Source: Gammaproteobacteria bacterium (lineage in GTDB: Bacteria > Pseudomonadota > Gammaproteobacteria > CAJXQU01). From it: 64,000 nucleotides of DNA. Positions 4,394-62,808 of the stretch are shown here, one piece after another. The stretch lies in the NCBI GenBank assembly GCA_965238175.1, contig CBDEGZ010000003.1:416001-480000 (forward strand), in the 5' to 3' direction. Position numbers and translations under genes: made by a program. Below the pieces are notes generated by a model. It searched no databases and had not been told where the DNA came from. It saw only the letters and a program-made list of their open reading frames with translations. Each line of letters starts with the position of its first letter. The first letter of the stretch is position 1.

Positions 4394-4891
4394 ATGTCAG
4401 AATTCAACGCCTATATTGGTCTCGGAAGTAATCTCGAAGATCCTATCAAACAAGTTCGTACCGCGCTCCAAGAGTTAGATCAAATTAAATCAAGCAAATT
4501 GATCAAACATTCATCGCTTTATAAAAGTGATCCTGTTGGGCCTGCTGGTCAGCCGGATTACATTAATGCCGTTGCTGAGATCAAAACGCGACTCAAGCCA
4601 ATAACTTTATTACAAGCTTTGCAGGCAATAGAACAGGATCATCAACGCGTTCGTTTAAAACGTTGGGGTCCTCGAACGTTGGATCTTGATCTCTTGATTT
4701 ATGCGGATCAAAAAATTGATGAGCCGGATTTAATCGTCCCACATATTATGATCGCAGAACGTTCATTTGTACTTTACCCTCTGGCAGAAATTGCATCTGA
4801 TATCCAAATTCCAGGGTTAGCATCAATGCCAGAGTTGCTTAAAAACGTGTCCAGAAAAGGACTTTCTAAATTATCAAACGAGACCTTTTAG
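4394..4891 (+). CDS. folK: HPPK (2-amino-4-hydroxy-6-hydroxymethyldihydropteridine diphosphokinase)
   Basis: YIGLGSNL, RWGPRTLDLDLL. Confidence 0.96.
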   Translation: MSEFNAYIGLGSNLEDPIKQVRTALQELDQIKSSKLIKHSSLYKSDPVGPAGQPDYINAVAEIKTRLKPITLLQALQAIEQDHQRVRLKRWGPRTLDLDLLIYADQKIDEPDLIVPHIMIAERSFVLYPLAEIASDIQIPGLASMPELLKNVSRKGLSKLSNETF

Positions 4892-4926
4892 TTTGGTTTG
4901 TGTAGTTAGTTTAAGAGTAGCAAGGA

Positions 4927-5568
4927 ATGAATAATCCTCTCAAATATATTGTGGTTGAAGGTTCGATTGGGGTTGGAAAAACAACACTGGCGAAACGCTT
5001 AGCAAAGCATTTTGGATCGGATCTTATCCTCGAAGGCGCAGCCGAAAATCCTTTCTTACCCTCATTTTATGAGAATCCAGCGGGTGCGGCACTCGCCGCT
5101 CAGCTTTTCTTCTTATTTCAGCGCATTGAACAGATCAAATCGATGATTCAGGACGACATGTTTAATCCAGTGCGCGTTGCTGATTTTATGCTCGAAAAAG
5201 ATCGCTTGTTTGCGGAACTGACATTGACAGAAGAGGAACTGAAGTTATACGACCAGGTCTACGCTGAAATGGCTGTTGATGCACCAACCCCCGATCTGGT
5301 GATCTATTTGCAAGCACCCATAGAAATTTTGTTAGCGCGGATAAAAAAACGCGGAATTGATCATGAACAGGGAATGGATGCAGATTATCTTCAACGATTA
5401 AGTGAAGCCTATGTGCGATTTTTCTATCACTACAAAAAAGCGCCTTTGCTGATCATAAACACAACCGAGGTAAATTTTGCCGAAGGTGAAGAAGATTTTG
5501 CTATGCTACTCTCTCACATCAGAGAATTACCCAGAGGCGTAACCTACTTTAATCAAATGACGAATTAA
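4927..5568 (+). CDS. Deoxynucleoside kinase family protein
   Basis: VEGSIGVGKTT P-loop, ENPFL, PDLVIYLQA; usual folK-dNK-panB context. Confidence 0.9.
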   Translation: MNNPLKYIVVEGSIGVGKTTLAKRLAKHFGSDLILEGAAENPFLPSFYENPAGAALAAQLFFLFQRIEQIKSMIQDDMFNPVRVADFMLEKDRLFAELTLTEEELKLYDQVYAEMAVDAPTPDLVIYLQAPIEILLARIKKRGIDHEQGMDADYLQRLSEAYVRFFYHYKKAPLLIINTTEVNFAEGEEDFAMLLSHIRELPRGVTYFNQMTN

Positions 5569-5570
5569 AC

Positions 5571-6389
5571 ATGAAAAAAGTATCTCCAAAAAAATCCCAA
5601 AAAATATCAGTCACCCGACTACGTCAAATGAAAAAAGAGGGCGAAAAAATCGCCATTTTAACGTCTTATGACGCGACCTTTTCCGCATTATTAGATGAAG
5701 CAGGTGTCGATGTACAACTTGTGGGGGATTCGCTTGGCATGGTCATCCACGGTCAAGATTCCACCGTCTCCGTGACTATCGAAGATATGATCTACCATTC
5801 TTCCATAGTCAGTCAGGCAAACAAGCGTAGTTTGATCATCACTGATATGCCGTTTATGAGCTATGCAACACCAGAACAAGCCATGACAAACGCTGCGAGA
5901 TTAATGAGTGAAGGCGGGGCAGAAGTGATCAAAATGGAAGGTGGTGCATGGTTAGAAGAGACCATCTCTCTACTTAGTTCACGGGGAATTCCTGTCTGTG
6001 CTCATTTAGGTTTATTACCACAATCGGTTCATAAATTAGGTGGTTATCGAGTTCATGGTCGTGATAAGACTAGTGCAAAACAGATCCTGAAAGATGCAAA
6101 AAATCTGGAAAAAGCCGGCGCTGAAATAATGGTTATTGAGCTTGTGACCAGAAAGCTTGCTGCAGAGATCTGCGAGGCTGTTTCAATTCCCGTTATTGGA
6201 ATTGGGGCGGGTTCAGATTGCGACGGCCAAGTGTTGGTTTTACATGACATGCTTGGAATTGGTGGGCGTTACATGAAAATGTGTAAAAACTTTATGGCCG
6301 AAAGTGACAGCATTCAAAACGCGATCAAAAACTATGTGGAAGAAGTCAAAACCGGCTCTTTCCCTGCTAATGAGCACGGTTTCGACTAA
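5571..6389 (+). CDS. panB: 3-methyl-2-oxobutanoate hydroxymethyltransferase
   Basis: LVGDSLGMV, KMEGG, IGIGAG..CDGQVLV. Confidence 0.96.
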   Translation: MKKVSPKKSQKISVTRLRQMKKEGEKIAILTSYDATFSALLDEAGVDVQLVGDSLGMVIHGQDSTVSVTIEDMIYHSSIVSQANKRSLIITDMPFMSYATPEQAMTNAARLMSEGGAEVIKMEGGAWLEETISLLSSRGIPVCAHLGLLPQSVHKLGGYRVHGRDKTSAKQILKDAKNLEKAGAEIMVIELVTRKLAAEICEAVSIPVIGIGAGSDCDGQVLVLHDMLGIGGRYMKMCKNFMAESDSIQNAIKNYVEEVKTGSFPANEHGFD

Positions 6390-7246
6390 TGAATACCATT
6401 ATCCACGTTGCCGAACTAAGAAGTCAGGTGAAAAAATGGCGCATGGCAGGCGAAAGTATTTGCTTAGTTCCGACGATGGGAAATCTGCATGAAGGTCATC
6501 TTGCATTGGTCGACCGGGCTAAACAGTTATCTGATCATGTCATCGCGTCGATTTTTGTTAATCCGATGCAATTTATTCAGGGCGAAGATTTTGCAACCTA
6601 TCCACGAACAATGGAGCAGGATAGCCTCGCTTTATTTGAACGGGGTGTGAACACTCTATTCTCGCCCGAAGTTGATGAAGTTTATCCCGCTGGTTTAGAA
6701 AACCACACCGAAGTTTCAGTTCCGGCATTGGATGGTTTTCTCTGCGGCGCTTCAAGACCAGGACATTTCAGCGGTGTTGCTACGGTCGTTTCAAAATTAT
6801 TCAATCTAGTACAACCTGACACGGCCATCTTTGGTCAAAAAGATTATCAGCAACTGCTAGTGATCAAACACATGGTCAACGATTTATGCATGCCTATCGA
6901 CATACAATCTTTACCAACCGTCAGAGAAGAAGATGGGCTCGCACTCAGCTCACGTAATGGTTATTTAACTGAAAAAGATCGAAAAACAGCGCCAGCGATA
7001 TATCAACAGCTGACCGAAATAACTGAGCAGATCAAAAATGGAAATATAAACTTTTCTGATCTGGAAAAAACCGGTAAAGAAAGTTTAAAACAACTGGGTT
7101 TTGAACCTGAATATTTAAGTATTCGTCGTCAAGATGATCTCAATATCGCAGATCAAAAACGCGATCAAAAACTCATTATTCTTGTCGCCGCACGACTAGG
7201 CACAACTCGTCTTATCGACAATATATTGGTATCTCGATCATTATGA
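6389..7246 (+). CDS. panC: Pantoate-beta-alanine ligase
   Basis: VPTMGNLHEGH, SRPGHF, FGQKDYQQ, RLIDN. Confidence 0.96.
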   Translation: MNTIIHVAELRSQVKKWRMAGESICLVPTMGNLHEGHLALVDRAKQLSDHVIASIFVNPMQFIQGEDFATYPRTMEQDSLALFERGVNTLFSPEVDEVYPAGLENHTEVSVPALDGFLCGASRPGHFSGVATVVSKLFNLVQPDTAIFGQKDYQQLLVIKHMVNDLCMPIDIQSLPTVREEDGLALSSRNGYLTEKDRKTAPAIYQQLTEITEQIKNGNINFSDLEKTGKESLKQLGFEPEYLSIRRQDDLNIADQKRDQKLIILVAARLGTTRLIDNILVSRSL

Positions 7247-8031: not shown

Positions 8032-9618
8032 TTATAAATCCTTAAATTTCAGATTATATTTATTTAAGTAAACTCTTATTCGCTGTGAATCATTATTAGT
8101 TTCCTTTTTTGAACTACTTCGATTAAAAAGTTGCCTACCTGCATCAGCCATACTTTTGCTTTCTTTGCAGAGACGAATAACATGTGTAAGTTGTGCCTGT
8201 TCAAACAAATCTAGATTTTCATAAGCTCCACTTGTGAGCGTATTTTTAAGCAGCTCATCATCACTATTGCTTTTAGAATCTTTGTAACCATTCCAATCCA
8301 TCTGTAATCGCTGTATTTCATGATCAACAATACTCTCCGTAATTCGGCCACCCGTCGCTAAGGTTGCCATTCGGGTGATACTCGAATTCAGATCACGAAA
8401 GTTTGCTTTCCATTCAGCGAAAGAACTTAACGAGAACGCAAGGTATTTTGATTTTGCCGAGCTGTTAAAACCAATTTTATGATTCATATCCTGTGCATAG
8501 CGTTGAAGTTCATATTCTATATTTGGTTCAATATCTTCATAACGTTCTTTGAGTGAAGGCAGCTGGTAGTTCCACAAGTTGATTCTGGCTAGTAGATCTT
8601 CTCTGAATTTACCTTCTTCAACGAGTTGATAGAGATTGCGATTTGTTCCTGCGATGAGCTGAAAATCGCTGCTGACTTTTTGATCGGAACCAAACGGAGT
8701 AAACACTTTTTCTTCAATCGCTCGTAGTAACATGGCTTGTTCGTCTAAACCGAGCTCACCGATTTCATCCAAAAAAAGTAACCCGTGATTTGCTTCTAAT
8801 AATAATCCATTTCGATTATTCACAGCTCCTGTATAGGCGCCCTTTATATGCCCAAACAGCGTAGACATGGCATTATCACCACGCAATGTTGCGCAATTAA
8901 CTTCGACTAATTGCCCTTTAAGCTGTGTGCGCTGCTGTTTTAATTCGTATATTTTTTTGGCTAAATGTGACTTGCCAACACCAGTTGGTCCCATCAATAA
9001 AATAGGCGCTTTTGATCGAATAGCAACTTGCTCAATTTCATCAATAAGTTGGTTATATCGTTTATTGCGGGTTTCGATTCCATCTTTAAGATAACTAATG
9101 TCTTGTTGGGCATCGCGGTTAAATCGAGAGGCAATTTGATCATAACGAGAAAGATCCAGATCAATAGTAAATAACTCACCATGCGCACCTTCTTTACTCG
9201 GTGCAGTCTGAATCAGTTTACCCGGGAAATAATTCGCTTCAGTCAGCAGATAAATACAGATCTGTGCGACGTGCGTTCCTGTCGTGATATGAAAATGGTA
9301 GTTGTTATTTTCAGGATCAAAATTGTAAGCATGTGAAAAGTCGTGCAGTTGACTATAGACCTGCTCAAAATCCCAGGGATCATCATAGTCTACAAGGTAA
9401 ATAGAAATCTCAATATCCAGGCAAAGAGTGCTGATGTCTTTTAAAGTGAGGTCTAATAATGCCTGATCTTGTTTGTGATAGATCAGGATCAATTCATCAA
9501 CTGGAAACTCATGGTGCATCAACAATGACATGGTTGGACGCCAGCGTAACCAGCGCTTACTTCCAAGGCCTACATTATCAAGACGAGAGCCTAAAATCCC
9601 AATAACTATATTATTCAT
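8032..9618 (-). CDS. rtcR: RNA-repair sigma54-dependent activator RtcR
   Basis: N-terminal RWRPT, DPWDFEQVY, HITTGTHVAQIC (RtcR sensor domain); AAA+ GPTGVGKS, GAYTGA, LFLDEIGEL; divergent from rtcB. Confidence 0.95.
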   Translation of the reverse strand: MNNIVIGILGSRLDNVGLGSKRWLRWRPTMSLLMHHEFPVDELILIYHKQDQALLDLTLKDISTLCLDIEISIYLVDYDDPWDFEQVYSQLHDFSHAYNFDPENNNYHFHITTGTHVAQICIYLLTEANYFPGKLIQTAPSKEGAHGELFTIDLDLSRYDQIASRFNRDAQQDISYLKDGIETRNKRYNQLIDEIEQVAIRSKAPILLMGPTGVGKSHLAKKIYELKQQRTQLKGQLVEVNCATLRGDNAMSTLFGHIKGAYTGAVNNRNGLLLEANHGLLFLDEIGELGLDEQAMLLRAIEEKVFTPFGSDQKVSSDFQLIAGTNRNLYQLVEEGKFREDLLARINLWNYQLPSLKERYEDIEPNIEYELQRYAQDMNHKIGFNSSAKSKYLAFSLSSFAEWKANFRDLNSSITRMATLATGGRITESIVDHEIQRLQMDWNGYKDSKSNSDDELLKNTLTSGAYENLDLFEQAQLTHVIRLCKESKSMADAGRQLFNRSSSKKETNNDSQRIRVYLNKYNLKFKDL

Positions 9619-9757: not shown

Positions 9758-9773
9758 TGGCAGGCCCATTGCA
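9758..9773 (+). promoter_or_regulatory. Sigma54 (-24/-12) promoter of rtcB operon
   Basis: TGGCAGGCCCATTGCA with exact GG-N10-GC spacing. Confidence 0.88.
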
Positions 9774-9840: not shown

Positions 9841-11094
9841 ATGGACCAGCAAAACAACATTAAAAACTCAAGCAACTATGACGTGTTATACGCAAATATT
9901 TCGAGAGTACCGGTTAAGTCATGGACCAAAGGTGTGCCGTTTGATCAGAATTCAAAGGATCAATTATTGAGCCTTTCGCAAATGCCTTTTATCCATAAAT
10001 GGATTGCGGCAATGCCTGATGTTCATGTTGGGAAAGGGGCCACGATAGGAAGCGTCATCCCAACATTTGGTGCGGTTATTCCTGCTGCCGTCGGTGTGGA
10101 TTTAGGTTGCGGAATGATGGCAGCAAAAACGACTCTGACGGCCAATGACCTGCCTGACGATTTAGCTGATATGCGTAGCGCAATTGAAAGTTTGGTTCCA
10201 CATGGTCGCTCTGCTCGACGTCGTGGTGGTCGTGATAAAGGTAGCTGGGGAAATATACCAGATGATGTGGCTGAAGCATGGTCGCCACTAGCTGATGGAT
10301 TTGATCGCCTGGTTGAAAAGCATCCGTTTTTGAAGAATACCAATAACGTCGCGCATTTAGGAACATTGGGAACAGGTAATCACTTTGTAGAGATCTGCCT
10401 GGACGAAAATGAGGATGTCTGGGTGATGTTACATAGCGGATCTCGTGGTGTGGGTAATGCGATTGGAAGACATTTTATCGAAAAAGCACAACGAGATATG
10501 GAACGCTGGTTTATTCATTTGCCTGATCGAGATCTGGCTTATATACCAGAGGGCAGCGAGCAGTTTGGTCACTATATTTCTGCAGTGTCATGGGCACAAG
10601 ATTTTGCCCGCATTAATCGTGAAATAATGATGCAGCGAACATTGCAAGCCATGACTGATGTTTTACCAATAGCATTTACGGCTGATGTAGAAGCGGTGAA
10701 TTGTCACCATAACTACATCCGTAAAGAGAACCACTACGACGAAAACGTGTGGGTCACTCGAAAAGGTGCGGTGAGTGCTCGCAAAGGCGAAATGGGCATT
10801 ATCCCAGGAAGTATGGGTGCGAAATCATTCATCGTTCGAGGGCTTGGAAATGAAGAAAGCTTTTGTAGTTGTAGCCATGGAGCAGGACGTGTGATGTCAC
10901 GTACTCAAGCAAAAAAAGTAGTTTCATTAGCAGAACACGTTCAAGCCACGAAAGGTGTGGAATGCCGTAAAGATGCGAGTGTAATTGATGAAACTCCAGC
11001 AGCGTATAAACCGATTGAACAAGTCATGGAAGCACAAAATGATCTTGTGGAAATAGTACATACCTTAAAGCAGGTCGTGTGCGTAAAAGGATAA
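9841..11094 (+). CDS. rtcB: RNA ligase RtcB (3'-phosphate/5'-OH)
   Basis: MPDVH, GVDLGCG, GTLGTGNHF, HSGSRG, CHHNY, SHGAGR, C-terminal VKG. Confidence 0.97.
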   Translation: MDQQNNIKNSSNYDVLYANISRVPVKSWTKGVPFDQNSKDQLLSLSQMPFIHKWIAAMPDVHVGKGATIGSVIPTFGAVIPAAVGVDLGCGMMAAKTTLTANDLPDDLADMRSAIESLVPHGRSARRRGGRDKGSWGNIPDDVAEAWSPLADGFDRLVEKHPFLKNTNNVAHLGTLGTGNHFVEICLDENEDVWVMLHSGSRGVGNAIGRHFIEKAQRDMERWFIHLPDRDLAYIPEGSEQFGHYISAVSWAQDFARINREIMMQRTLQAMTDVLPIAFTADVEAVNCHHNYIRKENHYDENVWVTRKGAVSARKGEMGIIPGSMGAKSFIVRGLGNEESFCSCSHGAGRVMSRTQAKKVVSLAEHVQATKGVECRKDASVIDETPAAYKPIEQVMEAQNDLVEIVHTLKQVVCVKG

Positions 11095-11203
11095 GCGCGG
11101 AAAGCAGATGCTGGAATGGGCCAGCACCTTTTAGGAAAGAAGAATTCTGTATATTTCTGTTAAAAAAGTAGTTAGGAAAATACAACAAAGAATCTCAATC
11201 TTT

Positions 11204-11278
11204 ACAAACTTGCGGAGCTGGTTTTAACCAGCCTGACACCAGGTTCTTTGAGCCAATGTGTATCGGTTTGTGCGGGTT
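11204..11278 (+). ncRNA. Putative branched structured RNA element
   Basis: AACTTGC/GCGGGTT closing helix (11207-13/11272-78) encloses GCTGG-TTTTAA-CCAGC and GGTTC-TTT-GAGCC hairpins. Confidence 0.4.
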
Positions 11279-11286
11279 AGATAACT

Positions 11287-11352
11287 ATCGTTATAGCTAA
11301 ATGGTAAAGCGCTGGAAACAGTCATGTGATGGTTCGACTCCATCTAACGATG
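11287..11352 (+). ncRNA. tRNA-like RNA lacking an anticodon (arm replaced by CTG-GAAA-CAG)
   Basis: 7-bp acceptor ATCGTTA/TAACGAT; TAGCT..TGGTA..AGC D arm; T arm GATGG-TTCGACT-CCATC; no encoded CCA. Confidence 0.85.
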
Positions 11353-11354
11353 CT

Positions 11355-11428
11355 ATCACTATAGCTCATATGGTTAGAGCAGTTGACTCAAAATCAATTT
11401 GTAGCCGGTTCGAATCCGGCTAGTGAAC
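11355..11428 (+). tRNA. Atypical tRNA or tRNA-like RNA, anticodon CAA, short variable loop
   Basis: Acceptor TCACTA/TAGTGA with A1:A72 mismatch; D arm GCTC/GAGC; GTTGA-CTCAAAA-TCAAT; T arm GCCGG-TTCGAAT-CCGGC; no encoded CCA. Confidence 0.85.
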
Positions 11429-11484
11429 CGCCGAAAGGCACCAACTTACACATTAAAGTGTATTGAAATAATGTCTGAAAGGAC

Positions 11485-11761
11485 AATGTAAAACGCTCCA
11501 GACAGCAGATCATTTATGAAAAATATTCTAGTTGTTGAAGATTTCACCTTCTTCGGAAGAGGCAGTTCAGAGATAACAAGAGTGGCCTGAATAGGTCTGA
11601 ATAGACTTGAAGCGTCAACATGCAAACGACCTTTGTGGTGGGTTTGTAACTTGCGAATTTATGAGACTTTTCAATAGAGATAATTCTGTTGTCATCGCCA
11701 TAATCATCCCAGGATACATAAACCAACGAGCTAGTTTGTATGTGGAGCGTTTACATTTTTT
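11485..11761 (+). ncRNA. Putative ~275-nt structured ncRNA upstream of the SPFH gene
   Basis: 15-bp end helix 11485-11500/11743-11757 with one bulged A, then a T run; nested 9-bp helix 11501-09/11685-93; C(UUCG)G hairpin at 11548-59. Confidence 0.6.
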
Positions 11762-11774
11762 AAGGAGAATTAGT

Positions 11775-12938
11775 ATGTTTTTTATGAAAAAAATTATCGT
11801 TCCTGAAACGCATCATGCTTTGTTATTCAAAGACGAGCCGTTCAGTAATGTACTTATGCCAGGTGTTTATAATTTGCTCGACTTAAGAAATCGAATTAGA
11901 TTTTCTCTAGTTGATATTTCTAACACCTTAGAAAATGGTGTAAATGATCAGGCGATGAAAGTTTTAAAACTACATCCTGAAAAAATGAACGCACACGTAC
12001 AAATCTGGGAAACCGGAGAACATGAAGTAGGACTTGCTTATCAAGACAATATCTTGAAAGAAATTAAAGCACCTGCCGAACGTGGCGCTTATTGGACAGG
12101 TTTTGGTGAAGTAACGATCAAAAAAATCGATATTTCTGAAATCTTCAAGCTGGATAAAACACTCGCAAGAATGGTGTTAGCCGCTAAAGACTCCTTGCTT
12201 AAAAACTCAGCAATTAGCGCAGTGACTACGGCTACTATTCCAGAACGTCATTTTGGTTTTTTGGAAGTTGGTGGTGAACAGCACTCTAAGTTAGACGCAG
12301 GTATCCATGTTTGGTGGAAATTCAATCGTAACCTAAAGGTTAAACAGATTGATTTAAGGCTACAAAACATGGAAGTTAATGGACAAGAAATTTTGACCAA
12401 AGACCGTGTTGGTTTGCGTGTTAATTTATCTGCTACCTGGCAAGTCAGTGATGCAAAACGTGTGTCTGCAGAATTAGCAGATCATACTGATTATTTGTAC
12501 CGTGAATTGCAGTTAGCATTGCGTACGATTGTTTCCACTCAAACATTGGATGAGTTGCTTGTCGATAAAAATAAACTGAATCAAAAAATTCAAGAGATTG
12601 TTGTCAGTAAAGCCTCTCAATACGGCATTGAGTTAAAAACGGTTGGTGCAAGAGATATTGTTTTACCCGGTGAAATGAAAACGATTTTGAGCCAAGTTGT
12701 TGAAGCCGAAAAAATGGCTGAAGCAAATTTGATCAAACGTAGAGAAGAAACCCAGGCGACAAGATCATTGCACAACACTGCAAAAGTGATGGAAGGAAAC
12801 CCAACCCTTTTACGTTTGAAAGAACTGGAAGTGCTAGAAAAAATCACATCACAGATCAGTACGCTAAATGTTTATGGTGGCTTGGATGGCGTTATGAACG
12901 ACATGGTTCGTATCCCATCGACAGCTGCTAAGACATGA
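11775..12938 (+). CDS. SPFH/Band-7 (slipin-family) protein
   Basis: AAGGAG SD plus ATG 11775; QEILTKDRVGLRVNL, DIVLPGEMK, RREETQATRSLHNTAKVMEGNPTLLRLKELE; no obvious TM helix. Confidence 0.9.
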   Translation: MFFMKKIIVPETHHALLFKDEPFSNVLMPGVYNLLDLRNRIRFSLVDISNTLENGVNDQAMKVLKLHPEKMNAHVQIWETGEHEVGLAYQDNILKEIKAPAERGAYWTGFGEVTIKKIDISEIFKLDKTLARMVLAAKDSLLKNSAISAVTTATIPERHFGFLEVGGEQHSKLDAGIHVWWKFNRNLKVKQIDLRLQNMEVNGQEILTKDRVGLRVNLSATWQVSDAKRVSAELADHTDYLYRELQLALRTIVSTQTLDELLVDKNKLNQKIQEIVVSKASQYGIELKTVGARDIVLPGEMKTILSQVVEAEKMAEANLIKRREETQATRSLHNTAKVMEGNPTLLRLKELEVLEKITSQISTLNVYGGLDGVMNDMVRIPSTAAKT

Positions 12939-12980: not shown

Positions 12981-13034
12981 TCTCAACTCTCTTTTAATCA
13001 AATCTATAGAAACCAAAATTAAGAAGGTTTGAGT

Positions 13035-13460
13035 ATGAAAAGTAGCAAACAAAGAAGATTGGAAATTAAAGAAAAAAGGAGAAAAAAAGCTGCAAAGTTA
13101 AAAATTAGTACTTTTGAGGTTTGTGATCCTCTTCCTAAAGGGGCTGTCTTATCAAGCTCAATGGAACTCCGCCATAATAATATTTATTGTGTTTTACCAC
13201 TTTTTTATGTCGATAAAGCTTATAGTTGTCAGGACTGTGGTTCAAAAGAATTATGGACAGCTAAACAACAAAAATGGTGGTACGAAATTGCAAAAGGTAA
13301 TATTTATTCTAGCGCAGTAAAATGTTTGAAATGCCGAAAAAAAATAAAACCAGAAAAAGAGACTCAAAAAAACACATGGAAAAAATGGCACTTAAAGAAC
13401 CCCATCCAAATGAGGCTTTTTTTAAGAAACGTTAATTATTTCAGGAAAAAATCAAGATAA
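13035..13460 (+). CDS. Zinc-ribbon (zf-trcl-like) protein, possibly frameshifted near the C-terminus
   Basis: YVDKAYSCQDCG...WTAKQQKWWYE...CLKC (two CxxC pairs). Confidence 0.75.
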   Translation: MKSSKQRRLEIKEKRRKKAAKLKISTFEVCDPLPKGAVLSSSMELRHNNIYCVLPLFYVDKAYSCQDCGSKELWTAKQQKWWYEIAKGNIYSSAVKCLKCRKKIKPEKETQKNTWKKWHLKNPIQMRLFLRNVNYFRKKSR

Positions 13461-13517: not shown

Positions 13518-14743
13518 TGTAGAAGTTTAGACCCAATCTGACACATCACTAAATCAAGCGGAGCGTAGCGACGCTTGATTTAGTGAGAGTTACCCGCTTT
13601 GATGTAACTGCAACGTAAACATCAAAACACAAAGAGGTAACTCTCATGATTCATACTAATGACAAAGTTATAAAACATAAAGTTGGTCTACTCAATCTCG
13701 CTGAAGAACTCGGCAATGTCTCAAAAGCCTGCAAGATGATGGGTTTGTCCAGAGATACATTTTATCGCTACAAAGAAGCGGCTGATGAAGGCGGTGTAGA
13801 AGCCTTGTTTGATCGTAATCGGCGTACCCCAAATCTTAAAAACAGAATCGACCCGGCTATTGAAACCGTTGTGCTCGAGTATGCACTGGAAGAGCCCGCA
13901 CATGGTCAAACGCGCACCAGTAACGAGCTGCGCAAACGGGGAACATTTGTCTCACCCAGTGGCGTTCGTTGTATCTGGCTTCGTCATGGTCTTGCTTGCT
14001 TTAAAGATCGCCTGAAGGCATTGTCTGATAAGGTAGCTGGTGAAGGCTTGATCCTCACTGAGTCTCAAGTCGCGGCGATGGAACGCAAAAAAGACGACGA
14101 TGAGGCTTGTGGCGAGATAGAAACGGCACACCCTGGTTATCTTGGCTCGCAAGATACTTACTATGTCGGTACTTTCAAAGGCATTGGTCGGGTTTATCAA
14201 CAAACGTTTGTTGATACTTACAGCAAGGTCGCTCACGCGAAACTGTACCCGACTAAAACACCGATTACGGCAGCTGACATGCTCAATGACCGCGTCCTCC
14301 CATTCTACGAACAACAACGTTTGCCTATGTTGCGCATTTTGACAGATAGAGGGACGGAGTATTGTGGGCGAGCTGACCAGCATGATTATCAGCTTTATAT
14401 GGCGTTGAACAATATCGAACACACCAAAACCAAGGTCAAATCACCTCAGACGAATGGTATTTGTGAGCGATTCCATAAGACGATCCTCAATGAGTTTTAT
14501 CAAGTCGCTTTGCGTAAGAAAATTTACCAATCGATTGATGAACTGCAACTCGACCTTGACGAATGGTTGCTCAAATACAATACTCAACGAACTCACCAAG
14601 GCAAAATGTGCTGCGGGAGGACGCCGATGGAAACACTCATCGACGGACAAGCTATCTGGAAGGAAAAGTTTGTGAATTAAACTTAACCTGACAGTCGGTT
14701 ACTGATAATTGGGTAACTGTCAGATCAAATCTGAATTTCTACA
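13518..14743 (+). mobile_element. IS481-family insertion sequence, copy 1 (1226 bp)
   Basis: TGT...ACA ends, imperfect terminal IRs (TGTAGAAGTTTAGA / TGTAGAAATTCAGA); flanked by AATTAGT direct repeat; second copy at 61583-62808. Confidence 0.93.
13646..14680 (+). CDS. IS481-family DDE transposase
   Basis: HTH (GNVSKACKMMGLSRDTFYRY), QDT, LTDRGTEY, PQTNGICERFHKT, YNTQRTHQG. Confidence 0.94.
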   Translation: MIHTNDKVIKHKVGLLNLAEELGNVSKACKMMGLSRDTFYRYKEAADEGGVEALFDRNRRTPNLKNRIDPAIETVVLEYALEEPAHGQTRTSNELRKRGTFVSPSGVRCIWLRHGLACFKDRLKALSDKVAGEGLILTESQVAAMERKKDDDEACGEIETAHPGYLGSQDTYYVGTFKGIGRVYQQTFVDTYSKVAHAKLYPTKTPITAADMLNDRVLPFYEQQRLPMLRILTDRGTEYCGRADQHDYQLYMALNNIEHTKTKVKSPQTNGICERFHKTILNEFYQVALRKKIYQSIDELQLDLDEWLLKYNTQRTHQGKMCCGRTPMETLIDGQAIWKEKFVN

Positions 14744-34678: not shown

Positions 34679-36379
34679 TCAAAACAGGAAATAGCGTTGG
34701 GCAAGTGGTAATTCAGCTGCTGGCTCACAGGTTAATAATTCGCCATCTGCAAAGACCTGATATGTTTGAGAGTCAACTTCAATTTCAGGTTGGTAGTCAT
34801 TCAGTACCATATCGGTTTTGGTGATATTTCGACAATTTTTTACCACACCCACCATGCTCTTTAATCCAAGTTGTCCTGCGAGATCATCTTGTTGCGCCGC
34901 CTGTGAAACAAAGGTCATTTTTGTTGCATAGCGGGCGCCACCAAACGTTGCAAACATAGGCCGATAATGTACGGGTTGAGGTGTTGGAATAGAGGCATTT
35001 GGATCACCCATGGGTGCTGCGGCAATCATACCGCCCTTGATAATCAAATTTGGCTTTGTTGCAAAAAAGGCAGGATCCCATAACACAAGATCAGCCAACT
35101 TACCGACCTCAACGGATCCCACCTCATGAGATATGCCATGTGTTATTGCCGGATTTATAGTGTATTTAGCGATATAGCGTTTAGCTCTAAAATTATCAGC
35201 TTCGCGATCATTATCTAAAGCGCCGCGTTGCACTTTCATTTTATGGGCGGTTTGCCATGTTCGAGTGATCACTTCACCAACGCGGCCCATAGCTTGTGAG
35301 TCCGATGCAATCATCGAAAAGGCGCCTAAATCATGCAAAATATCCTCAGCAGCAATGGTTTCTCGTCGGATCCGAGACTCTGCAAACGCCACATCTTCAG
35401 CAATATTGGGATCAAGGTGATGGCAGACCATCAACATATCTAGATGTTCGTCAACGGTATTAATAGTGTAAGGCCTGGTTGGGTTAGTCGACGACGGTAA
35501 AACAAAAGGCTCACCACAGGCTTTGATAATATCGGGGGCGTGGCCGCCGCCAGCACCTTCGGTATGATAGGTGTGAATTGTTCTCCCTTTCATAGCTGCT
35601 AAAGTATGCTCAACAAAACCAGATTCGTTTAAGGTGTCAGTATGAATTGCGACTTGCACATCCATTTTGTCTGCCACAGATAAACAAGTATCGATCGATG
35701 CCGGCGTTGTGCCCCAATCTTCATGTAATTTCAGGCCGATGGCACCTGCACGCACCTGTTCTTCAAGTGGTGCCCGGTTGCTGGCATTACCTTTAGCCAG
35801 ATAACCAATATTGATCGGTAAATCTTCCGCCGCCTGTAGCATGCGATGCATATTCCAAATGCCTGGTGTACAAGTTGTGGCATTGGTGCCGGTTGCGGGT
35901 CCTGTGCCGCCGCCCAACATTGTTGTCACACCGGACATTAAAGCTTCTTCAATCTGTTGAGGACAAATAAAATGAATATGTGAATCGATTCCACCAGCCG
36001 TTAAAATCTGACCTTCGCCAGCAATAACTTCGGTTCCAGGTCCAACTAAGATAGTCACGCCCGGCTGGATATCAGGGTTGCCTGCCTTACCAATACCGAC
36101 AATACGACCATGCTTAATACCGATATCGGCTTTAATAATACCCCAGTGATCCAGTATCAATGCATTTGTGATAACGAGATCAACAACGTCAGCATCATTA
36201 CCTTGGCATTGTCCCATACCATCCCGAATTACTTTGCCGCCACCAAATTTGACTTCATCACCATAGACAGTGTGATCCTTTTCGATTTCTATCCAGAGCT
36301 CAGTATCACCCAAACGAACACGGTCACCGGTGGTTGGGCCATACATTTCCATATAGGCTTGTCTGTTAATGGCCGTCAT
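34679..36379 (-). CDS. ureC: Urease subunit alpha
   Basis: [38 protein letters not shown]. Confidence 0.98.
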
Positions 36380-61582: not shown

Positions 61583-62808
61583 TGTAGAAGTTTAGACCCA
61601 ATCTGACACATCACTAAATCAAGCGGAGCGTAGCGACGCTTGATTTAGTGAGAGTTACCCGCTTTGATGTAACTGCAACGTAAACATCAAAACACAAAGA
61701 GGTAACTCTCATGATTCATACTAATGACAAAGTTATAAAACATAAAGTTGGTCTACTCAATCTCGCTGAAGAACTCGGCAATGTCTCAAAAGCCTGCAAG
61801 ATGATGGGTTTGTCCAGAGATACATTTTATCGCTACAAAGAAGCGGCTGATGAAGGCGGTGTAGAAGCCTTGTTTGATCGTAATCGGCGTACCCCAAATC
61901 TTAAAAACAGAATCGACCCGGCTATTGAAACCGTTGTGCTCGAGTATGCACTGGAAGAGCCCGCACATGGTCAAACGCGCACCAGTAACGAGCTGCGCAA
62001 ACGGGGAACATTTGTCTCACCCAGTGGCGTTCGTTGTATCTGGCTTCGTCATGGTCTTGCTTGCTTTAAAGATCGCCTGAAGGCATTGTCTGATAAGGTA
62101 GCTGGTGAAGGCTTGATCCTCACTGAGTCTCAAGTCGCGGCGATGGAACGCAAGAAAGACGACGATGAGGCTTGTGGCGAGATAGAGACGGCACACCCTG
62201 GTTATCTTGGCTCGCAAGATACTTACTATGTCGGTACTTTCAAAGGCATTGGTCGGGTTTATCAACAAACGTTTGTTGATACTTACAGCAAGGTCGCTCA
62301 CGCGAAACTGTACCCGACTAAAACACCGATTACGGCAGCTGACATGCTCAATGACCGCGTCCTCCCATTCTACGAAGAACAACGTTTGCCTATGTTGCGC
62401 ATTTTGACAGATAGAGGGACGGAGTATTGTGGGCGAGCTGACCAGCATGATTATCAGCTTTATATGGCGTTGAACAATATCGAACACACCAAAACCAAGG
62501 TCAAATCACCTCAGACGAATGGTATTTGTGAGCGATTCCATAAGACGATCCTCAATGAGTTTTATCAAGTCGCTTTGCGTAAGAAAATTTACCAATCGAT
62601 TGATGAACTGCAACTCGACCTTGACGAATGGTTGCTCAAATACAATACTCAACGAACTCACCAAGGCAAAATGTGCTGCGGGAGGACGCCGATGGAAACA
62701 CTCATCGACGGACAAGCTATCTGGAAGGAAAAGTTTGTGAACTAAACTTAACCTGACAGTCAGTTACAGAAAAAGGGGTAACTGTCAGATCAAGTCTGAA
62801 TTTCTACA
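61583..62808 (+). mobile_element. IS481-family insertion sequence, copy 2 (1226 bp)
   Basis: Near-identical to 13518-14743; flanked by CTTTAGT direct repeat (61576-82 / 62809-15). Confidence 0.93.
61711..62745 (+). CDS. IS481-family DDE transposase
   Basis: 344 aa; one aa difference seen versus copy 1 (YEQQ vs YEEQ). Confidence 0.94.
   Translation: MIHTNDKVIKHKVGLLNLAEELGNVSKACKMMGLSRDTFYRYKEAADEGGVEALFDRNRRTPNLKNRIDPAIETVVLEYALEEPAHGQTRTSNELRKRGTFVSPSGVRCIWLRHGLACFKDRLKALSDKVAGEGLILTESQVAAMERKKDDDEACGEIETAHPGYLGSQDTYYVGTFKGIGRVYQQTFVDTYSKVAHAKLYPTKTPITAADMLNDRVLPFYEEQRLPMLRILTDRGTEYCGRADQHDYQLYMALNNIEHTKTKVKSPQTNGICERFHKTILNEFYQVALRKKIYQSIDELQLDLDEWLLKYNTQRTHQGKMCCGRTPMETLIDGQAIWKEKFVN

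Follow-up and report, generated by a model that had tools for sequence, protein, structure and literature searches.

A conserved structured RNA directly upstream of a Band-7/SPFH gene in RtcB RNA-repair cassettes

In a 64,000-nucleotide (nt) stretch of the genome of a Gammaproteobacteria bacterium (GenBank assembly GCA_965238175.1, contig CBDEGZ010000003.1; this whole stretch is called the window below), positions 11485-11757 encode a structured RNA with paired ends, which is followed immediately by the gene of a Band-7/SPFH protein. By comparing the window with related loci, we found that this segment is a real, conserved and strand-specific multi-helix RNA, located upstream of the gene of an apparently soluble SPFH protein in RtcB cassettes; in the window its context is an RtcB RNA-repair operon. 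The arrangement is best explained if 11485-11757 is the 3' domain of a composite non-coding RNA (ncRNA) locus, in which a 5' three-way-junction element and between one and three tRNA-like modules precede the stem-closed domain. The covariation-supported fold of this domain forms an irregular rod of P1, P3, P4 and P5, from which P2 branches as a variable side arm, and its parts in the window are as follows.

11473-11484, forward strand: GNRA-type hairpin GTCT-GAAA-GGAC just ahead of the closing stem (helix 1; 87.7% paired, compensatory change in 4/4 pairs)
11485-11757, forward strand: stem-closed structured RNA, supported by folding energy and a 46-row alignment; covariance model R1 matches 11611-11753 at 86 bits
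11495-11499/11744-11748, extended outward to 11488/11755, forward strand: P1, the conserved part of the closing stem
11501-11503/11614-11616, forward strand: P2, which closes the variable insert 11504-11613
11618-11623/11738-11743, forward strand: P3
11627-11639/11722-11734, forward strand: P4
11645-11657/11706-11718, forward strand: P5

The closing stem is formed by AATGTAAAACGCTCCA (11485-11500) and TGGAGCGTTTACATT (11743-11757), which pair over 15 base pairs (bp) with A11490 bulged. It is followed by six T residues (11756-11761) and by AAGGAG (11762-11767); the stem with its bulged A, the T run and AAGGAG lie exactly where the original prediction, made from the letters of the window alone, had placed them. 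The start of the SPFH gene, which had been put at 11776, is an ATG at 11775. The minimum free energy of 11485-11762 on the forward strand was -78.5 kcal/mol, compared with -59.8 ± 4.25 kcal/mol for 200 dinucleotide shuffles (z -4.40), none of which folded as well. For the reverse strand, the corresponding z was -1.68, and 11 of the 200 shuffles were as good.

To compare this fold between genomes, we used the best 80 loci (L005-L084) of 146 confirmed encoding stretches from species-representative genomes. The titles of their records name Thiotrichaceae, Methylococcales, Cellvibrionaceae, Kangiellaceae, Alteromonadales and others. The core alignment consisted of 46 spacers, each extending from the last T-arm to the SPFH start, from the window and L005-L049 (L050 was dropped, as it contains N). 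The RNAalifold consensus of these spacers has 41 pairs in 7 helices, and standard pairs occupy 84.4% of the paired cells, compared with 63.3% in shuffled alignments (0/500 as high) and 36-41% when the pairing partners were slid. Changes on both sides of a pair were seen in 38 of the 41 pairs (mean of 28.8 in shuffled alignments, 22-30 with slid partners), and the covariation score was 0.564, as against 0.206 for shuffled and 0.09-0.13 for slid controls. At least 35 of the 41 pairs are kept in 31 of the 46 rows; in well-fitting rows the distance from P1 to P1 is 174-305 nt, and in the window it is 266 nt. The frequent G-U cells at pairs 345/569, 360/553, 390/537 and 392/535 fit the forward strand only.

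The conservation of the closing stem is graded from its inner to its outer end. The inner pairs 11495-11499/11744-11748 (helix 2) are standard in 93% of cells over the 46 spacers, the five pairs beyond them persist, though with bulges or 2x2 loops that differ by lineage (column counts of 56-73%), and the outermost AAT/ATT pairs, 31-32% paired, are particular to the window sequence and not conserved. Counted column by column, the full 15-bp stem is 62% paired compared with 55% after shuffling, a low value because the register of the bulge differs between lineages. When the outer part of P1 was anchored and scored sequence by sequence, the cognate ends reached 4.39 and the non-cognate ends 2.58, a difference that is blunted by the lineages with a 2x2 internal loop.

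The interior of the RNA differs from what had been proposed for it. All the complementary segments on which the proposal was built are present in the letters (GACAGCAGA/TCTGTTGTC, TGCAAAC/GTTTGTA, the CTTC-TTCG-GAAG hairpin, TTGTTG/TAACAA and tandem CTGAATAG). Of the predicted fold, the closing stem is upheld by the comparison at its inner five pairs, but the two inner helices that we examined are not conserved. The GACAGCAGA/TCTGTTGTC helix has letters in just 89 cells, 56% of them paired, and the TGCAAAC/GTTTGTA hairpin with its inner ACC/GGT is 52.6% paired compared with 49.2% after shuffling. In the covariation-supported fold their segments have other partners, and neither is compatible with P2-P5. 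The lineage-variable insert 11504-11613 contains the UUCG hairpin, TTGTTG/TAACAA and the CTGAATAG repeats.

A second group of 18 loci, whose SPFH proteins are 42-51% identical, was aligned separately. These distant RNAs have a structure of their own, with core motifs that are recognisably similar, e.g., UGGGUURGAU...RCGAA. Their 37 pairs, which include a closing stem GGGCUUCUG/CAGGAAGCCC and its variants, added by eye, are 86.6% paired, compared with 62.8% for shuffled and 36-44% for slid controls, and compensatory change is present in 34 of the 37. Homologous RNAs were thus found where the original prediction had suggested that they be sought, upstream of slipin/SPFH genes, in both the core and the distant groups.

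The reach of the RNA was followed with the covariance model R1. It covers 125 positions of the 3' domain and derives from 28 rows, namely the 31 well-fitting ones minus three near-duplicates; it scores neither the 5' strand of P1 nor P2. Matches to R1 were present in 36 of the 81 sources, one in each, on the forward strand and just 5' of the SPFH gene, and nowhere else in 587 kb. The match ends about 24-40 nt ahead of the start codon, with the Shine-Dalgarno sequence between, in 29 of the 36, and inserts of 90-190 nt separate the RNA from the start codon in the other seven (L005, L006, L007, L009, L029, L037 and L046). Hence, the description of the RNA as abutting the ribosome-binding site holds for the window and most of its relatives, but not for these seven. 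In L037 and L046, palindromic repeat-like insertions of about 115-120 nt are located between the closing stem and the ribosome-binding site.

In the genome of the window, the structured RNA is present in a single copy. In a sample of 150 further genomes of the class, each from a different genus, R1 gave one match (G106), which ends 25 nt ahead of an SPFH gene. The SPFH protein was found at E<=1e-50 in nine of these 150 genomes, and the G106 copy was the closest, with 60% identity. The same-genus genome in this sample (G005) had neither an R1 match nor the SPFH gene. A DNA search of six same-genus and 54 same-class genomes returned only three matches of 25-32 nt at E 0.003-0.01, which we read as chance. 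As the RNA match and the gene are absent from G005, and DNA matches from the six same-genus genomes, the distribution of the cassette is patchy.

The position of the RNA relative to the neighbouring genes was compared in 14 loci, which were annotated over 3-kb flanks. The rtcB gene is upstream of the unit of RNA and SPFH gene in seven of them, with RtcA next in one of the seven, and downstream in three, two of which have RtcA next and RtcR divergent upstream. At two further loci the SPFH gene is followed downstream by RlaP or Tpt1, and RtcB was not found within the flanks at four of the 14 loci, the one with Tpt1 included. In Thiothrix/Thiolinea loci (L012, L013, L030 and L025), a TGGCAC-N5-TTGCA promoter of the sigma-54 type directly precedes the RNA cluster, about 60-100 nt 5' of the 5' element. 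The SPFH transcript of these loci begins with the RNAs, and rtcB is not upstream. The structured RNA is directly 5' of the SPFH gene at every locus where it was detected, with rtcB upstream or downstream, as the original prediction of a link between the two would have it. Since the positions of rtcB and of the promoter vary between loci, the RNA stays with the SPFH gene and not with rtcB or the promoter.

The genes and RNA elements around the structured RNA in the window follow the order rtcR, sigma-54-like promoter, rtcB, 5' three-way-junction element, two tRNA-like genes, structured RNA, Band-7/SPFH gene, zinc-finger open reading frame (ORF) and transposase of insertion-sequence (IS) type.

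8032-9618, reverse strand: rtcR, divergent from the operon; sigma-54-dependent activator whose N-terminal domain is RtcR (CARF-like) (Pfam RtcR 9.6e-70, Sigma54_activat 3.1e-48)
9758-9773, forward strand: sigma-54 promoter-like site TGGCAGGCCCATTGCA, TGGCAC-N5-TTGCW with 1 mismatch, 68 nt 5' of rtcB
9841-11094, forward strand: rtcB RNA ligase gene (Pfam RtcB 1.2e-127)
11203-11272, forward strand: 5' three-way-junction element, with outer stem 11203-11210/11265-11272, T-arm-like hairpin 11217-11222/11227-11232 and hairpin 11236-11239/11258-11261
11287-11352, forward strand: tRNA-like module 1, 66 nt, with a degenerate anticodon arm (Rfam tRNA 48.4 bits; missed by ARAGORN)
11355-11429, forward strand: tRNA-like module 2, 75 nt (Rfam tRNA 57.9 bits over 11355-11428; called Leu-CAA by ARAGORN although merely 75 nt long)
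11762-11767, forward strand: Shine-Dalgarno AAGGAG of the SPFH gene, read from the letters, 7 nt ahead of the ATG
11775-12938, forward strand: Band-7/SPFH (slipin-type) protein, 387 amino acids (aa), predicted to be soluble (Pfam Band_7 6.8e-27)
13029-13460, forward strand: 143-aa treble-clef zinc-finger ORF (Pfam zf_Tbcl 6e-13)

The pattern TGGCAC-N5-TTGCW, which we take to be the sigma-54 consensus, has two matches in the window, which is the chance level, and position is the sole support for a promoter at 9758-9773. A simple scan of the forward strand between rtcB and the SPFH gene gave no terminator-like site. The original prediction had left out the rtcR/rtcB context, as well as the 2016 prediction of adjoining tRNA-like genes. 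The zinc-finger ORF was considered as a constant partner in the cassette and rejected, as tblastn found it at three of the 80 other loci (3-kb flanks). Further downstream, two ORFs of equal length (344 aa; 13646-14680 and 61711-62745) each have a 156-aa ORF nested on the opposite strand, and the first of them has helix-turn-helix and rve integrase domains. They probably represent the same IS element in two copies, one of which is located just 3' of the repair cassette.

The 5' three-way-junction element is conserved in its own right. A regular-expression motif for it matched 42 of 81 entries, of which L074 is a doubtful case, its CUGAC and GUAUC are invariant, and RNAalifold on 32 aligned sequences gave 19 pairs, 15 of them with compensatory change. 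Moreover, a T-arm motif is located 193-613 nt 5' of the SPFH start in all 79 of the other loci examined; L072, with an upstream sequence of only 68 nt, was left out of this count. In the window, the tRNA-like units end 56 nt 5' of the structured RNA and are thus outside its closing stem. At some distant loci, arrays of five to over 20 tRNA genes lie beside the SPFH/RtcB cassette (L061 at 4995-7152, L070 at 1637-2504 and 4503-7117, L054 at 843-1680). They recall Anabaena, where, according to a passage of PMC10272220, a stress-induced tRNA operon shares its regulon with rtcB and a slipin gene. A passage of PMC13086221 concerns an SPFH gene in the rtc locus of Pseudomonas aeruginosa.

We then asked how the RNA compares with known families. 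At gathering score, the Rfam 15 search of the window gave two tRNA matches and the unrelated 5_ureB_sRNA, with none in 11485-11757; at E<=10 in 11200-11900, the one match inside the element was to a snoRNA, at 12.3 bits and E 4.8. The Rfam search of 20 of the 80 related loci, at gathering score, gave 65 matches, all to tRNA. The 5' three-way-junction element at 11203-11272 is likewise without an Rfam match. Neither the vault RNA family nor any rRNA family matched at E<=10 in 11200-11900. Known ribozyme families gave no match at E<=10 in this region or at gathering score in the 20 related loci, a search that a new class of ribozyme would escape. The claim that the RNA belongs to no known family therefore agrees with the Rfam search that had been suggested as its check. 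The 5_ureB_sRNA match itself (35944-36229, forward strand, 95.4 bits, gathering score 40) is located opposite a 566-aa ORF (34679-36379, reverse strand), and it may reflect a conserved urease coding sequence.

The proposal of a Y-RNA-like or vault-RNA-like molecule did not hold as a statement of family membership. The YrlA model (RF02553) reached 22.6 bits compared with a cut-off of 69, at 11301-11411 on the tRNA-like genes, and found nothing in 11485-11757. Moreover, no TROVE/Ro60 gene (PF05731) was found in the genome of the window, which is 97.7% complete; the same profile was positive in two of 14 control genomes. Some features are nevertheless shared. As in the rsr-yrlBA-rtcBA operons of YrlA and Ro60 (Rsr), an ncRNA is encoded in an RtcR-controlled RtcB operon, where its neighbour is the gene for a putative ring-shaped scaffold protein. 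The two ends of the ncRNA pair with each other, in a stem that here is present and covarying, and the ncRNA is associated with tRNA mimicry. In contrast to YrlA, the tRNA-like units of the window are 5' of the stem-closed domain and not inside it, and the partner is an SPFH protein and not Ro60. Vault RNA shares with the structured RNA its small size, its paired ends and its link to a protein, the major vault protein (MVP), which builds a cage with its SPFH-like shoulder and its cap helix. However, vault RNAs are transcribed from eukaryotic Pol III genes and not within a bacterial operon, and stomatin, prohibitin and HflK/C match the SPFH protein of the window better (Z 15-18).

Closer to the window is b7a-tRNA, a tRNA-like RNA predicted beside Band-7 in RtcB operons (Burroughs & Aravind 2016, via the passage of bioRxiv 10.1101/312249 that cites it); the same passage shows that a cognate ncRNA for Band-7 in RtcB operons had been proposed earlier. 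RtcB, a Band-7 protein and an adjoining ncRNA are common to both, and the tRNA-like genes at 11287-11429 are the kind of cloverleaf beside a Band-7 gene, in an RtcB context, that this passage describes. The RNA at 11485-11757 is not: it is not tRNA-like, is three to four times longer and has its own rod-and-arm fold, whereas the citing passage describes a tRNA-like molecule only. As far as that passage goes, the system and its tRNA-like RNA were already predicted in 2016, and the stem-closed domain and the 5' element are additional here. The structured RNA also presumably resembles ROOL and GOLLD, which are long, highly structured, patchily distributed RNAs of unassigned function adjoining tRNA or tRNA-like genes; it differs from them in being shorter, fixed to a single protein gene and without an Rfam 15 match.

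The partner of the RNA by position is a Band_7 protein (95 bits), and 6032 of 8000 candidate proteins scored as its homologues at E<=0.001. No 19-residue window of the protein exceeds a hydropathy of 0.85, and by this measure it would be soluble, without a membrane anchor. Its AlphaFold2 model (predicted local distance difference test score of 80) starts with an all-beta part (residues 1-125), after which come an SPFH domain and a long helix, the succession of Band_7 domain and long oligomerisation helix that is characteristic of the SPFH/Band-7 superfamily. The closest structural match was the SPFH domain of stomatin (Z 18.1, root-mean-square deviation 1.0 over 104 residues), followed by whole protomers of the stomatin, prohibitin and HflK/C cages (Z 15-16.6) and by the vault shoulder with cap helix (MVP residues about 457-715; Z 11-12.5). 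One vault entry was aligned to model residues 7-368 with Z 10.7 over 259 residues, and the results from Foldseek were in agreement. This likeness to ring- and cage-forming proteins is one of a shared fold in a predicted model, and a shared fold shows no function.

In the reading that we favour, the structured RNA would serve the SPFH oligomer as its cognate scaffold, by analogy with Y RNA and Ro60, and we assign this reading a probability of about 0.5. Under it, the structured RNA would be co-transcribed with the operon from a sigma-54 promoter, and processing at the flanking tRNA-like units would free it or leave it as a stable 5' module. It would then act as the cognate partner of the SPFH oligomer, scaffolding or loading a ribonucleoprotein (RNP), and this RNP would work with RtcB on broken tRNA or rRNA in a manner resembling Y RNA/YrlA with Ro60. 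The analogy with Y RNA and vault RNA is plausible as a mode of action, because the SPFH protein appears to be soluble and its fold resembles that of cage-forming SPFH proteins and of the vault shoulder.

Several observations weigh against a scaffold RNA or narrow what can be built on its fold. An element of the 5' untranslated region (UTR) would be expected to lie beside the SPFH gene just as well, and in most loci a stretch of 24-40 nt that includes the Shine-Dalgarno sequence separates the end of the RNA from the start codon. An alignment-free test of the closing stem, in which the first 95 nt were paired with the 3' parts of their own or of other loci, did not discriminate: the cognate end beat 10 of 10 controls at 15 of 79 loci, and the mean score was 29.2 for cognate and 25.2 for non-cognate ends. 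Eight of the 46 core rows fit poorly, with 14-27 of the 41 pairs (L014, L033, L036, L042, L043, L047, L048 and L049), and the covariance model and the two alignments together cover 64 of the 80 loci, so that the evidence for structure spans those only. As the aligned sequences are related, the counts from shuffling overstate significance, a weakness from which the slid control is free. Additionally, the literature search found no account of the structured RNA or of the 5' element beside Band-7/RtcB, but the 2016 original was outside its reach, and priority is uncertain.

The explanation that we rank second is a cis-acting leader of the SPFH mRNA, a 5' UTR fold that controls translation or stability; it might sense an RNA-damage signal, mediate autoregulation by SPFH or shield the 5' end once cleavage has occurred at the tRNA-like units. 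Much of the geometry described above would suit it. The RNA shares its strand with the SPFH ORF and always directly precedes it, with the 24-40 nt spacing in 29 of the 36 model matches; a terminator-like site was not seen between the two; and the RNA cluster of the Thiothrix type, directly behind its TGGCAC-N5-TTGCA promoter, is the 5' end of the transcript. However, the spacing to the start codon ranges from about 24 to about 190 nt, with inserts between P1 and the Shine-Dalgarno sequence in seven matches, which leaves no fixed geometry at the ribosome-binding site, and the tolerance of such long inserts in seven of the matches argues against a riboregulator that depends on spacing. Furthermore, we saw no conserved pairing of the RNA with the Shine-Dalgarno sequence and no alternative terminator or antiterminator, although no systematic search for alternative folds was made. 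No riboswitch family of Rfam was matched, and a multi-helix fold of 174-305 nt with invariant loop residues exceeds what a stabilising hairpin needs. We therefore regard a cis-acting leader as a minority possibility, albeit one to be taken seriously.

Third, the RNA might be a sentinel, decoy or substrate, cut together with the tRNA-like units by ribotoxins or stress nucleases, whose fragments would activate RtcR, a sensor of tRNA fragments with cyclic phosphates, or be re-joined by RtcB, possibly as circles, since P1 joins the ends. The sequence ACCUCC, like the 3' end of 16S rRNA, often forms the 5' strand of P1 in the core group, but the ACCUCC/GGAGG pairing is missing from the window (GCUCC) and from the distant group (GGGCUUC), and rRNA and ribozyme families gave no match at E<=10. 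Another point against this explanation is that RtcB is not known to join the kind of ends produced by RNase P/Z-type processing at tRNA-like units. In its favour, the RNA is encoded within an RtcR/RtcB cassette beside tRNA mimics, its paired ends have a geometry that favours end-joining, and RtcR is activated by damaged tRNAs, according to a passage of PMC7790460. On balance, we judge a sentinel RNA to be unlikely.

That the segment is non-functional, i.e., a chance fold, the end of a mobile element or a mis-read coding sequence, is hardly credible: an IS-type transposase is located 1.9 kb downstream and the SPFH frame is open upstream as far as an in-frame TTG at 11607, and the database protein is 425 aa long, but compensatory change affects 38/41 and 34/37 pairs, the alignment has indels of irregular length, synteny with the SPFH gene is kept in Thiotrichaceae, Methylococcales, Cellvibrionaceae, Kangiellaceae and others, and the element has a single genomic copy. 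The start implied by the 425-aa database copy of the window's SPFH protein would be inside the structured RNA. As most of the homologues listed are 382-392 aa long, and M1 is common to 20 of the 20 that were aligned, the called gene probably begins too far upstream and overlaps the RNA.

Returning to the scaffold RNA, a bolder form of it can be drawn from the vault and Ro-Y RNA analogies. An SPFH ring or cage would carry the structured RNA stoichiometrically, perhaps joined to the tRNA-like units, as a bacterial counterpart of the vault or of Ro-Y RNA; the particle would catch broken tRNA or rRNA and offer their ends to RtcB, and the variable arm and the conserved loops would set its specificity. 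We offer this as a tentative extension and think it rather improbable; if true, bacterial ribonucleoproteins would gain a new class, in which SPFH is the scaffold.

RtcB/RtcR operons are widespread, and the way in which they find substrates, as well as the roles of their accessory genes, are largely unexplained. To our knowledge, the accessory RNAs described for them are only the Y RNAs with Ro60 and the predicted tRNA-like RNA, and the latter was still unvalidated in 2018, according to the passage in bioRxiv 10.1101/312249. Our analysis adds to these a large, covariation-supported fold that travels with an SPFH protein apparently devoid of a membrane anchor. The structured RNA is a candidate for a new Rfam family, and the 425-aa SPFH protein of the database can be flagged as an over-long gene call. 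Taken together, these results give a handle on two questions: what the ligands of soluble SPFH proteins are, and whether bacteria build vault-like or Ro-like RNPs for RNA repair.

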